A DNA stretch of 64,000 nucleotides from assembly GCA_964413435.1 (NCBI GenBank), contig CAYPSB010000002.1, positions 9,189 through 73,188 on the forward strand, read 5' to 3'. The stretch is from an uncultured Flavobacterium sp. (lineage in GTDB: Bacteria > Bacteroidota > Bacteroidia > Flavobacteriales > Flavobacteriaceae). Shown piece after piece: positions 36,159 through 41,292 of the stretch (the stretch's first letter is position 1; every line of letters begins with the position of its first letter). Made by a program: the position numbers and the translations under genes. Under the pieces are notes generated by a model. The model saw nothing but the letters and a program-made list of their open reading frames with translations. It searched no databases and was not told where the DNA came from.

Positions 36159-38972
36159 TTAAAACCATTTTCGGGTAAAAAGATTGATGAGGGTTTCAGG
36201 CCTGAAGGTAACGATAAAACGAATTTTTTCGCCATAATTTTTATCGCCTACCTCCCAACCGTTATTGGAATATACCGGAAGATATAATTCAAAATAATCG
36301 GTAACCAGATTGAGTCGAATTCCGCTGTCGTACACAAATTTTCCGCAGGTCTCTTTATTTTTGATAGCACCCAAATCACCGTAGGCTTCAATCCAATTCC
36401 AAATACCATAGCTGGCGTTAAGGGTTGTCATCCAACGGTTAGCAAATCGGGTTTCGAGTTTTGACTTGAAAAAACCATCCATGATGATGGATTGCTGGCT
36501 GAACAAACCGGTTTTTTCAGAACGTCCCAAGTATTCACTTTCAAACAAATAATCAGTAGGTCGGTCCAGTCCGAAACTGAAATAATCGTCTTCGGTTTTG
36601 TTGTGTAAAAAGGTTCCGGCAAAGAAGCGCAGGTTGAGCTGTCGGTTGTCGTCAAACAGCTTTCGGTATTGTACTTCCGAAGCCAGTTTTCCGAAGGTTT
36701 TTGAATATTGAAAATCGCCCAGAAAATGAAAATGATGGGTCACTTCGGTTTTGGTATTGACATACTTGACATTAAAAACCTGATAGGTTCGGGTATCTTC
36801 AGAGGTTGTGTAAGCCGATTTTTGTTTATCGACCATAATTTCTTTGATAATGATTGATGATTTTTGGTTGTCGCGGAAATCATCAGGCCTGAAATTCAGG
36901 AATACCGTAGGTGCTACTTTGCTATAATAGGCATCGGGTGCATAATGCAGATAATGACCACCCAGCATGTATTTTATATTGTACAGGTGGCTGTCGCGAT
37001 TGTATTGGTTTACGAAAAACAAAGCTTTTCCGGAAAGGTTTCTGGTTTTGGTGGAAATCGTCGGGTTGACATCAAAAATGAAAGGCTTATCCAAAATAGT
37101 TTTGTTATGAAAACGGAATCCGGGTAAAAATCCGTCATACAAATTGTACTCCAGCGTAGGCACATAAAGGATTTGGTTGTAATAAGGATCTTCCAAATCT
37201 TTCATGAAATTGAATTTTATCGGTCTGTTGTTCAAACGAAATCCGCGCAACGACTGCCAATTGTTTCTCAAGTTAAACTCGGGTACTTCATTTTTGTAAT
37301 TGATGACAATTTTTTCGGCTTCGTTTCTCGGTACGGTAAAAATGCTGTCATTTTTGAAAGTATCAATCCATTTTTTAAAAACAACCTGTTTGTCTTTGAT
37401 GCCATACACCGGAATAGGGACATTGGTTTCTGTTTTGTTTTTGAGTTTAAAACTGACGCTGTCTTTGGTACGGGTAAAGTCTTCAAATTTGAAATCGATG
37501 ATGTCGCGCGACTCAATGATTTTGTCAAAAAACCAGTTGATTTTCTTAGGCGAATTGTTGGTCAGTATCGTTTCAAAATCTTTGCGTGTGGTTTGTTGGG
37601 TCTGATTCAAAACCAAAAACTGACGAATGCTGTTCTGTACAATGTCATTTCCAAGGTAGCTGTCGAGGTATTTCAAACTTAGACCGGCTCGGTATTTAGA
37701 GGCAATTTTTTCATTGAATTTGATCAGCGTATTTTTGGCATTACCCAAAGGTTGATCCAAATTTTTACGGGCCATCAGCATATAAAAATAACTGTACTGT
37801 CCGTTGAATCCCAGACTTACCAGATTATAACCACGAACCAAACGTAACTTGGCTACACTGCCCATCATCTTGCTGTCGGGGTGAAACTCTTCTATGTATT
37901 TCATCATGATATACACCTGAATACCGTCATAAATCCAGTTGTCCTGCCTTGGGTCGAGTTGGAGTGTGCTGTGCAGATAGTTGTTGAGGTAGGTTTTCAG
38001 GAATTTAATCTCGTATAAAAACTCATCTGAAAACGGACTGATAAAAACGGGTAACTGATTCAATCCGTAGAAAGGATTACGCTCGTAATCGGCTTCTGCT
38101 ACGGTTATTTTTTGATTGGGAAACTGTCCTAAATTATCGCTGACAAAATTGACAATTTTATCAATCACAATCGCTTTCTGAATCTCATTCAATCGGGTAT
38201 TTCGCAAATCGGAAACCACTTCCAGGCTACCGTTTTTATATAAAGAAAAAGCGGCATTGGCATCAATGAATAAATTAAAGTCCAAGCGGTTTTTGCCCGA
38301 AAGACGGTAATGATTTTGTTGATTTAGCGTTTCTTTGCTAATTTCGTTCAAATCAGAATTCAATGTCAGGTTTTGCGGAATTTTAACCTCCAAATCATAA
38401 TCAGAAAGACTGTTGGCACAATCGTCGAGGTTGAGATTGTTGTACTTTACAAAGGCGTGATTTTCGTAACGCGCCGGCAACAAAAAACAATTTTTCAGAT
38501 ACATTTTTCCGTTCTCACCATACCCGAATTTGGTAAATTTATCACTAGGTACTTTCACGAAATACGTGAGCGAAAGAGTAACTTTTTGATTAGGCAAAAG
38601 CTTATCTCTTAATCTGATTTGAATCACATCCGGATGGTTGGAATCGCGTTCCCAAGTCAGGAAGGTTTTGTTTTGATCAATGATGGTAATGTTATCTGTG
38701 CGGCCTCGTTCTTTTTCTTTAGCCAAATGAAAACTGCGTTCAAATTCGTCTGAAAACCGTGCTGCCAGCGGCGTGTTCTTTGAACTGTAACCATTCATCC
38801 AGTCATTCAGAACAATATGGTTCAAAGTATCGTTGGTTTGATTGTAATACGTCAGCTCCTGAATGACAGTCAGCATTTTTTTATCGCTGTCAACTTCTAC
38901 AATCATTTTAGAATGATGTTGAGCTGCAGCTATAAAGCTGAAAAAGAAAAGTATGTAACTTAATTTTCTCAA
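36159..38972 (-). CDS. large secreted protein: M1-peptidase-like region lacking HExxH plus Omp85-like C-terminal region
   Basis: 937 aa. TTG start overlaps the upstream stop (TTGA) and yields signal peptide (M)RKLSYILFFFSFIAAAQ. No HExxH anywhere. ...NNYLHSTLQLDPRQDNWIYDGIQVY sits where M1 enzymes have HExxH...WLNEGFAxY. The C-terminus ...YGDLGAIKNKE..FVYDSGIRLNLVTDYFELYLPVY...FTRKWF ends in Phe. Confidence 0.75.
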   Translation of the reverse strand: MRKLSYILFFFSFIAAAQHHSKMIVEVDSDKKMLTVIQELTYYNQTNDTLNHIVLNDWMNGYSSKNTPLAARFSDEFERSFHLAKEKERGRTDNITIIDQNKTFLTWERDSNHPDVIQIRLRDKLLPNQKVTLSLTYFVKVPSDKFTKFGYGENGKMYLKNCFLLPARYENHAFVKYNNLNLDDCANSLSDYDLEVKIPQNLTLNSDLNEISKETLNQQNHYRLSGKNRLDFNLFIDANAAFSLYKNGSLEVVSDLRNTRLNEIQKAIVIDKIVNFVSDNLGQFPNQKITVAEADYERNPFYGLNQLPVFISPFSDEFLYEIKFLKTYLNNYLHSTLQLDPRQDNWIYDGIQVYIMMKYIEEFHPDSKMMGSVAKLRLVRGYNLVSLGFNGQYSYFYMLMARKNLDQPLGNAKNTLIKFNEKIASKYRAGLSLKYLDSYLGNDIVQNSIRQFLVLNQTQQTTRKDFETILTNNSPKKINWFFDKIIESRDIIDFKFEDFTRTKDSVSFKLKNKTETNVPIPVYGIKDKQVVFKKWIDTFKNDSIFTVPRNEAEKIVINYKNEVPEFNLRNNWQSLRGFRLNNRPIKFNFMKDLEDPYYNQILYVPTLEYNLYDGFLPGFRFHNKTILDKPFIFDVNPTISTKTRNLSGKALFFVNQYNRDSHLYNIKYMLGGHYLHYAPDAYYSKVAPTVFLNFRPDDFRDNQKSSIIIKEIMVDKQKSAYTTSEDTRTYQVFNVKYVNTKTEVTHHFHFLGDFQYSKTFGKLASEVQYRKLFDDNRQLNLRFFAGTFLHNKTEDDYFSFGLDRPTDYLFESEYLGRSEKTGLFSQQSIIMDGFFKSKLETRFANRWMTTLNASYGIWNWIEAYGDLGAIKNKETCGKFVYDSGIRLNLVTDYFELYLPVYSNNGWEVGDKNYGEKIRFIVTFRPETLINLFTRKWF

Positions 38973-39859: not shown

Positions 39860-41292
39860 CAGAATTGAAAATAAATGAATTCTTTATAATCCGAAAACAC
39901 TCCCAATGCTAGGATAGCCGCCAAACACAGGCTCAATTTTAACCAACTGAATTGACCCGAAATCGGTTCTGTTTTTGTTCGGCTGTTCCATTCGGCCACT
40001 ACAAAGACAAGTATTAATGGTATTAATTCATAATTGTATCTCTCGATGGCAAAATACTGCTCAGAAAAAATACCGTTTTCAAACAATCTCTTGATGTATT
40101 GGTACGCATCGGTTATAGTTCTGGCTCTGAAAAATATCCAGGCCAAACACGTAAGCCCAAAGGTAATCAGTATATTAAATACAATGCGTGCCGAAGTTAA
40201 GTTCAGCCCTAAACTAAATTCTTCAAGGTTTTTCCGGTTTCGATTCAGTAGCAATAGCGGCAGGAAATACAAGGCATTTATAAATCCCCAAGCTATAAAC
40301 GTCCAGCTGGCGCCGTGCCAAAAACCACTTACCAAAAAGATGATAAAAGTGTTTCTGACTTTCAGCCACTTAGAACCTTTGCTGCCACCCAGCGGAATGT
40401 ACAAATAATCGCGGAACCAAGTGGTTAACGAAATGTGCCACTTGCGCCAAAACTCGGCTATATCTCTCGAAAAGTAAGGATAATTAAAGTTTTTCAGCAA
40501 ATCGATACCGAAGAGTTTCGAGGTACCTAAAGCAATATCGGAATAGCCCGAGAAATCGCCATAAATTTGGAACGCAAAATAAACGGCTCCCAATACCAAC
40601 GACAATGAATTCATGGAATGGTAATTGTCAAAAACTGCATTGGCATAAATGGCGCACGAATCGGCAATAACCACTTTTTTGACTAGGCCCCATACAATTT
40701 GGTATACCCCTTCTTTGGCTTTTTCAAAATTGAATTTACGTCTTCTTTTTACTTGTGGCAAAAGGTGAGTCGCCCGCTCTATGGGCCCGGCCACCAGCAA
40801 AGGAAAATAACTGACAAACAGGGAATAATCAACAAAGTTTTTTTCCGATTTGATTCTGCCGTAATAAATATCGATGATGTATGACAGGCCATGAAAAGTA
40901 TAAAAGGAAATCCCGACCGGTAGGATTAAATCCAGTAGAATCGGGCTGGCTTTCAGACCGAACGATTGCAGGACTTCGGCAAAAGACTCGGCAAAAAAGT
41001 TGTAGTATTTGAAAATACCGAGGAATCCAATATTGATGGAAATGCAGAGCCACAGCCATCTTTTTCGTTCGGATGGAGTAGTGCTCTTTTCAATTTTCAT
41101 TGCGGAAACATAGTCCAGCAAAGTAGAAAAAACCAATAGGAATAAAAACCGCCAATCCCAGCATGAGTAAAAGTAATAGCTGGCAAGGATGAGTATGTAG
41201 TTCTGATTGATTTTCGATTTATGCCCTACAAACCAATACAGTATAAAAACTATAGGCAAGAAAATGGCAAAATGAAACGAGTTGAAAAACAT
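39859..41292 (-). CDS. MBOAT family O-acyltransferase (AlgI/DltB type)
   Basis: 477 aa, polytopic. [27 protein letters not shown] and SGFWHGASW signatures. Confidence 0.92.
   Translation of the reverse strand: [477 protein letters not shown]

Follow-up and report, generated by a model that had tools for sequence, protein, structure and literature searches.

Three adjacent genes on the minus strand of a 64,000-nucleotide stretch from an uncultured Flavobacterium sp. (contig CAYPSB010000002.1, hereafter the window) encode a membrane-bound O-acyltransferase (MBOAT; gene 1), an SGNH-like partner (gene 2) and a 937-residue exported protein (gene 3). Their start and stop codons overlap (Table 1), and an earlier note on this DNA had taken them for a single hard-wired module spanning the envelope. 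Our comparison of related loci points elsewhere: we consider it likely that two units of independent function lie side by side here, the pair formed by genes 1 and 2 on one side and gene 3 on the other. The MBOAT-SGNH pair is accessory and dispensable, and is restricted to one clade; it lies directly upstream of a core envelope gene. With the same good degree of confidence, we regard gene 3 as a core envelope protein of Flavobacteriia that most relatives use without the acyltransferase.

This reading is carried by synteny. We scanned species-representative genomes and placed the window proteins by tblastn; the scan of related loci returned Flavobacterium alone (80 species loci, L001-L080), and more distant contexts were sampled one by one. 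Nearly all 80 loci have the same backbone, in which UvrA, the LOG gene, gene 3 and a 2-oxoacid dehydrogenase E1 gene follow one another. The MBOAT pair is found between LOG and gene 3 in 15 of these 80 loci, and gene 3 stands without an MBOAT neighbour in about 65 (~81%). Close relatives whose gene 3 is 76-78% identical to that of the window (L002, L003 and L006) do not have the pair. On a neighbour-joining tree built from E1 and UvrA, the carriers fall into one subclade with these three non-carriers nested within it, which suggests repeated loss of the pair, and the large F. johnsoniae-type clade includes no carriers at all. Outside this set, an MBOAT was beside gene 3 in none of eight more distant contexts (nine loci). 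Among them, the order LOG-gene 3-E1 persists without an MBOAT at 45% (L082), 34% (L089) and 32% (L084) identity, and other MBOAT-free contexts have MurB upstream or, for a relative bearing an HExxH motif, PIG-L and LpxL-like genes alongside.

MBOAT-partner pairs also exist away from gene 3. In a Flavobacteriales metagenome-assembled genome (L069), no pair stands between LOG and gene 3, but two of them are arranged in tandem just downstream of E1 (13777-18692). Their MBOATs end in FIYFNF and FIYFQF, and one partner matches Pfam ALGX while the other weakly matches DUF1574. The linkage of the trio is not conserved, and an envelope-spanning machine of three parts is therefore unlikely. The hard-wiring proposed in the earlier note is thus not supported across genomes: the pair is restricted to a minority of loci, non-carriers are nested among carriers, and homologues of gene 3 are largely unlinked to MBOAT genes.

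The junctions themselves read exactly as the earlier note had described them, and they are tight wherever the pair is present. Both lie within a few bases in all 15 carriers, ranging from a 4-base overlap to direct abutment, with coordinates as in the window in 10 of the 15. The MBOAT reading frame ends on the first base of its partner in 13 carriers, the exceptions being L011 and L045. Across the loci examined in which the start is visible (L002-L073), gene 3 begins with TTG (TTGAAA...) with or without the pair, save for three carriers (L051, L058 and L060) where the aligned start is GTG. A gene 3 start that predates the pair is consistent with these data, since TTG is present in loci lacking the pair and the carrier junctions are flush. 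We propose that, within a single Flavobacterium subclade, the two genes came to fill the short gap between LOG and gene 3, and that the TTGA overlap arose where the 3' end of the pair met the pre-existing TTG start. The co-transcription of three genes would then reflect gene packing here and not a shared machine.

A Kordia sp. locus (L081), whose gene 3 is 43% identical, offers a parallel. A 421-residue gene at 6735-8000 fills the LOG-gene 3 slot there; it has an Exo_endo_phos domain and a type IX secretion system (T9SS) C-terminal sorting tail, is unrelated to the MBOAT pair, and ends at 8000, with the gene 3 homologue starting at 8001. This arrangement indicates that the slot upstream of gene 3 takes unrelated genes, packed just as tightly. 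The general lesson is that a functional module cannot be established from overlaps of start and stop codons alone: in this locus, a dispensable pair is packed against a core gene.

In the window genome, the three genes are probably co-transcribed, and their tight junctions make translational coupling or co-translation plausible. The terminator that the earlier note had put at 41312-41339, downstream of LOG (a PF03641 match), was recovered as an intrinsic-terminator-like hairpin at essentially the same site, ending ~22 nt before the MBOAT start codon. The best database relatives of the window proteins come from Flavobacterium silvisoli (96-97% identity), and homologues of each of the three proteins number in the hundreds to thousands.

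Judged by sequence and predicted structure, genes 1 and 2 are a standard MBOAT-SGNH O-acyltransferase pair with a PatA/PatB-like architecture and a DltD-like partner. Gene 1 matches the Pfam MBOAT family well above its cut-off of 27 bits (PF03062; 100.6 bits, E 1.4e-28). Two histidine blocks are present, WHIS from residue 285 (His286) and FWHG from residue 324 (His326), and the RWHxSL and GFWHG blocks align with those of DltB (6BUG), which is also the nearest solved structure by sequence (E 1.8e-27). The best NCBIfam match is the DltB equivalog TIGR04091, whose 162 bits lie below the cut-off of 375. Gene 1 ends in the hexapeptide FIYFQF, which fits the pattern FXYXXF. Work on PatA/PatB (JBC 2025; PMC12148441) defines this C-terminal hexapeptide of MBOATs as an "acyl shuttle", whose invariant Tyr is auto-acylated by the MBOAT before the acyl group passes to the Ser of the SGNH partner; in non-Dlt MBOAT systems, FXYXXF is fused to the MBOAT and acyl-CoA serves as donor (PMC12148441). 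By analogy, Tyr474 is the predicted acyl carrier of gene 1. The motif is kept in all 15 pair-bearing loci and in the two paralogous MBOATs of L069.

Gene 2 was placed by structure prediction alone. It has no Pfam or NCBIfam match at E<=0.1, including DltD, Lipase_GDSL and ALGX, and a PDB sequence search returned no match. An AlphaFold2 model built from a 38-sequence alignment, with a mean predicted local distance difference test score (pLDDT) of 73, has an N-terminal transmembrane helix (residues 2-34) followed by an α/β domain, in which residues 153-194 form an insert that is poorly modelled. The top Foldseek match of this model is DltD (7dxm_B, E 1.2e-4), followed by PAF-acetylhydrolase (PAF-AH) and GDSL-type SGNH proteins, with modest TM-scores of 0.36-0.57. 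The α/β fold, the block I Ser and the block V His of the SGNH family are all present: G56-S57-S58 and H272 are invariant across the 38 homologues, and the Ser and His are kept as well in the divergent partner paralogues of L069. The Asp of the block V DxxH motif is missing, Thr269 occupying its position, while the L069 partners keep DxxH. For these two genes the earlier note had read the locus well. It had called gene 1 an MBOAT with the AlgI/DltB signature and the FWHG histidine, and gene 2 an anchored protein with a GSS serine and a GHMN block like SGNH partners of the DltD/AlgJ/PatB type; each of these features reappears in our searches and models.

A working mechanism for the pair can be drawn by analogy to PatAB and DltBDX, which supply the acyl donor, the order of the transfer steps and the class of acceptor. 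The MBOAT would take an acyl group at the cytoplasmic face, most likely acetyl from acetyl-CoA, and the conserved His286 and His326 would catalyse its transfer onto Tyr474 in the MBOAT's own periplasmic FIYFQF tail. The tail would hand the acyl group to Ser58 of the DltD-like partner anchored in the inner membrane, and the partner would esterify a hydroxyl of an extracytoplasmic glycan near that membrane. Candidate acceptors are peptidoglycan and a lipid-linked or nascent surface polysaccharide. Our scan of the neighbourhood for genes of polysaccharide synthesis or peptidoglycan modification found housekeeping genes only, giving no clue to the acceptor. Near the locus, among the LOG, AT3, UvrA and E1 neighbours, there is no DltA, DltC or DltX gene, no esterase gene and no polysaccharide gene.

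A more specific form of the two-unit explanation makes genes 1 and 2 the equivalent of PatA/PatB, acetylating the O-6 position of N-acetylmuramic acid (MurNAc) and modulating autolysins and lysozyme sensitivity, with gene 3 unrelated. The architecture suits this proposal. As in PatA/PatB (PMC12148441), there are two genes, an MBOAT with catalytic His and its own C-terminal FXYXXF Tyr tail and a single-pass SGNH partner of ~300 residues with a Ser nucleophile, and there is neither a carrier protein or microprotein nor any of DltA, DltC and DltX. Unlike in PatA/PatB, the predicted fold of the window partner is nearer to DltD, its DxxH Asp is a Thr, and no ape gene (O-acetyl-peptidoglycan esterase) adjoins the pair. 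PatB, whose structure has reportedly been solved, is not among the best 50 structural matches of gene 2, where DltD comes first. A surface glycan that varies between strains would fit the patchy, dispensable distribution of the pair within the genus at least equally well. Peptidoglycan O-acetylation is accordingly a minority expectation within the two-unit explanation, and we consider it rather unlikely; the remainder falls to a variable surface glycan.

The pair can also be compared with AlgI/AlgJ(/AlgF/AlgX) and WssH/WssI, which are likewise cassettes of an MBOAT and an SGNH-like partner; one paralogous partner in L069 has an ALGX match. Those cassettes sit in operons for polysaccharide synthesis and export, whereas the window locus has no such genes nearby and its partner has no ALGX match. 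Franklin (2004) reportedly describes algI/algJ as a laterally transferred cassette. If the two-unit explanation is true, genes 1 and 2 add one more MBOAT-SGNH envelope O-acyltransferase, which leaves the concept unchanged and is useful for cataloguing. They would also offer a clean case from Bacteroidota in which FXYXXF is fused to the MBOAT and the DltD-like partner has no Asp in DxxH.

Gene 3 is the more intriguing part of the locus. It is an exported member of a large, conserved and uncharacterised Bacteroidota family, which comprises 1875 clusters at 50% identity (E<=1e-3) and keeps the full-length architecture down to ~25% identity. Databases name its members "aminopeptidase" or "gluzincin family metallopeptidase". 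The signal peptide is predicted to be cleaved before Gln18, because signal peptidase I substrates of Bacteroidetes follow a Q-rule (PMC5837995), and its sequence has no lipobox Cys. The AlphaFold2 model (pLDDT 76.5) shows domains I-III of the M1 aminopeptidase fold, and the whole model retrieves IRAP, ERAP1 and ERAP2 in Foldseek at E ~1e-17 over ~600 columns. At the sequence level, the Pfam Peptidase_M1 match is weak (15.2 bits, cut-off 27.7) and a PDB search gave no match.

Gene 3 shares the fold of domains I-III with M1 aminopeptidases such as PepN, ERAP1/2 and IRAP, and the GxMEN and HExxH-18-E motifs are both absent from it. Unlike these enzymes, it has lost the zinc ligands and the catalytic Glu (NNYLH and WIYDG), is exported by a signal peptide, and has an all-β domain of ~340 residues in place of the helical domain IV. 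Distant members of the family keep GxMEYP, HExxH and WMDEG. HExxH followed by WxDEG is retained in 10 of 106 full-length family representatives, the HExxH-bearing representatives included in the motif alignment keep GxMEYP too, and one HExxH-bearing relative has a precomputed Pfam Peptidase_M1 match. These sequences indicate that the Flavobacterium gene 3 is a predicted pseudopeptidase whose M1 ancestor was active and already had this C-terminal domain. The signal peptide and the M1-like region without a catalytic motif were already part of the earlier note; the Gln18 site, the fold and the NNYLH residues agree with it.

The C-terminal domain is probably an outer-membrane barrel with an Omp85-like topology, as judged from its predicted structure, but we do not assign it to Omp85. 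In the model, the 16 strands are joined mostly by short turns, with a pLDDT of ~65-90 over most of them, and the AlphaFold2 secondary structure has one highly conserved loop of 53 residues that joins strand 11 to strand 12. Strand 13 carries a YGDLG motif. Aromatic residues make up 18% of the domain; gene 3 ends in Phe, and F, Y or W ends 84 of the 106 family representatives. The predicted number of strands and the position of the long conserved loop recall Omp85 proteins, in which BamA has L6, and YGDLG resembles the Omp85 [FY]xDxG motif (FWDMG at 738 in E. coli BamA). Unlike Omp85, the loop contains LGRSE and no VRG[FY] (VRGF at 661 in E. coli BamA). We also searched with a profile of 22 diverse members. 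The C-terminal domain had no match above noise at E<=10 in Pfam (including PF01103), in NCBIfam or in a profile search of the PDB, and its hhalign comparison with the barrel of E. coli BamA had a probability of 0.1. POTRA domains are lacking as well: Pfam has no match to them, and the N-terminal 560 residues are M1-like. We make no claim of Omp85 homology, because Pfam, NCBIfam, the PDB profile search and hhalign all fail to detect it. Of the Omp85 barrel ending in Phe that the earlier note had read in this region, the β-rich, barrel-like character and the terminal Phe stand, and the relationship to Omp85 finds no support in sequence homology.

Two further tests told us little about the barrel. 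Foldseek with the whole 937-residue model listed solely M1 peptidases among its best 50 matches, leaving the barrel unmatched, and hydrophobic alternation did not differ between the predicted strands (2.09) and soluble β domains (2.35) and is uninformative. In overall design, gene 3 can be likened to PlpD (type Vd, with an enzymatic N-terminal module) and to PgaA and BcsC, which join a periplasmic domain to a C-terminal 16-strand barrel; as in those proteins, most members of the gene 3 family end in an aromatic residue. In our literature searches we met no account of such a fusion of an M1 module and a barrel from Bacteroidota. The family is an uncharacterised M1 variant with an orphan, probably membrane-embedded C-terminal domain. 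A tentative reading, which we hold somewhat short of likely, makes gene 3 by itself the founder of an uncharacterised family in which an M1 module is fused to an outer-membrane barrel. With ~1,900 clusters, a place next to LOG and E1 in Flavobacteriia and catalytically dead sites in most members, the family may deserve follow-up. We also considered gene 3 as a subunit of the newly described F. johnsoniae BAM complex and rejected this, as no peptidase-like subunit is described there.

Two side observations concern this family. Genus-wide identity is ~59-62% for gene 3, ~75-78% for E1, 81-86% for LOG and 86-89% for UvrA. Gene 3 is much the fastest of the four to diverge, which would suit an envelope protein that is exposed at the surface or evolves quickly for another reason. 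A link to the envelope or to lipid A is possible from a single locus (L087; GCA_016193485.1, 1373-11919), where a distant member that keeps HExxH has a PIG-L deacetylase, a metallophosphatase and a lipid A acyltransferase (Lip_A_acyltrans) gene as its neighbours and LpxB close by.

These features of gene 3 bear on the proposal of the earlier note, in which the MBOAT and its SGNH partner acylate a polymer or lipid that the 937-residue protein receives, exports or anchors. The overlapping junctions in the window and in every carrier speak for it, as does the combination in gene 3 of a periplasm-sized N-terminal module with a probable 16-strand barrel, an architecture common to the polysaccharide export porins PgaA and BcsC. 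Set against this are the roughly four fifths of sampled Flavobacterium species and the eight distant contexts in which gene 3 has no MBOAT beside it, the nesting of non-carriers among carriers, the MBOAT-partner pairs without an adjoining gene 3 and a neighbourhood free of polysaccharide synthase or export genes. We judge such a module improbable. Slightly more doubtful still is a version limited to the carrier subclade, in which the partner would acylate a substrate bound or passed by the dead M1 domain and the barrel, the 937-residue protein being an undescribed class of outer-membrane protein. If true, proteins of that class would join an M1 (pseudo)peptidase to an Omp85-like barrel of 16 strands that lacks POTRA domains. 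The reading of gene 3 alone as the founder of a family of such fusions is a good deal more likely.

The two-unit explanation has points of its own to answer. The junction between genes 2 and 3 stays within a few bases in every carrier, which could reflect selection for co-expression, and the pair always sits at this single site in carriers. No acceptor-pathway genes that would explain the pair on its own turned up in the neighbourhood scan. The missing DxxH Asp (Thr269) means that the chemistry of the partner may differ from that of canonical SGNH transferases. Finally, the case for a barrel at the C-terminus of gene 3 comes from one AlphaFold2 model, through its secondary structure and confidence.

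A Dlt-like D-alanylation system was rejected as barely credible: DltB is the best NCBIfam and PDB match of the MBOAT, and DltD, which shares the N-terminal membrane anchor, is the best fold match of its partner, but gene 1 stays far under the DltB equivalog cut-off, DltA, DltC and DltX are not encoded nearby, the MBOAT itself ends in the shuttle motif (a mark of acyl-CoA-using, non-Dlt systems), which is not carried on a microprotein as in teichoic-acid D-alanylation, and the host is a diderm Bacteroidota, where to our knowledge there are no teichoic acids.

Table 1. Features of the three-gene locus, in window coordinates
Feature	Position	Strand	Description
Intrinsic-terminator-like hairpin	41342-41315	minus	11-bp stem with 4 GC pairs, followed by a T-run; 3' of the LOG gene
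MBOAT gene (gene 1)	41292..39859	minus	477-residue open reading frame
C-terminal hexapeptide FIYFQF	39862..39879	minus	Residues 472-477 of the MBOAT; matches FXYXXF
TGATG junction	39861-39857	minus	MBOAT stop TGA and 296-residue frame start ATG, one base in common
SGNH-like partner gene (gene 2)	39859..38969	minus	296-residue open reading frame
Candidate nucleophile Ser58 (GSSR, 56-59)	codon 39686-39688	minus	G56-S57-S58 invariant
Candidate base His272 (CGHMN, 270-274)	codon 39044-39046	minus	Invariant
TTGA junction	38972-38969	minus	Gene 2 stop TGA overlapped by gene 3 start TTG
Exported-protein gene (gene 3)	38972..36159	minus	937-residue open reading frame, TTG start
Signal peptide	38922..38972	minus	Residues 1-17; predicted cleavage before near-invariant Gln18
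M1-like domains I-III	37302..38918	minus	Residues ~19-557: N-terminal β, thermolysin-like helical, β-sandwich
Degenerate zinc site	37971..37985	minus	N330-N331-Y-L-H334 for HExxH; WIYDG (346-350) for WMDEG
C-terminal all-β domain	36162..37169	minus	Residues 602-937; 16 long antiparallel strands predicted (602-921)

The flanks of the locus in the window add two genes. Between UvrA and LOG, positions 42180-43193 (minus strand) encode an AT3 membrane acyltransferase (Acyl_transf_3, PF01757, E 5e-22). A tblastn search of the 80 related Flavobacterium loci gave no homologue of this protein, whose gene looks like a second acyltransferase insertion, specific to the strain, in this variable stretch. 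Downstream of gene 3, positions 33570-35975 (minus strand) encode the E1 protein, an 801-residue single-chain 2-oxoacid dehydrogenase E1 in which α and β parts are fused (E1_dh, Transket_pyr and Transketolase_C); its position as the next gene after gene 3 is conserved in Flavobacteriaceae.

Gene 3 itself is relocated occasionally, again without an MBOAT. In L065 and L067 its homologue has no LOG, UvrA or E1 nearby, and its neighbours in L065 are a cytidine deaminase, an NlpC/P60 protein and the Der and Era GTPases. One further contig (L075; CALPPA020000046.1) is labelled "MAG: Klebsiella pneumoniae" yet carries a Flavobacterium UvrA-LOG-gene 3-E1 locus at 58-88% identity, and is probably mis-binned.

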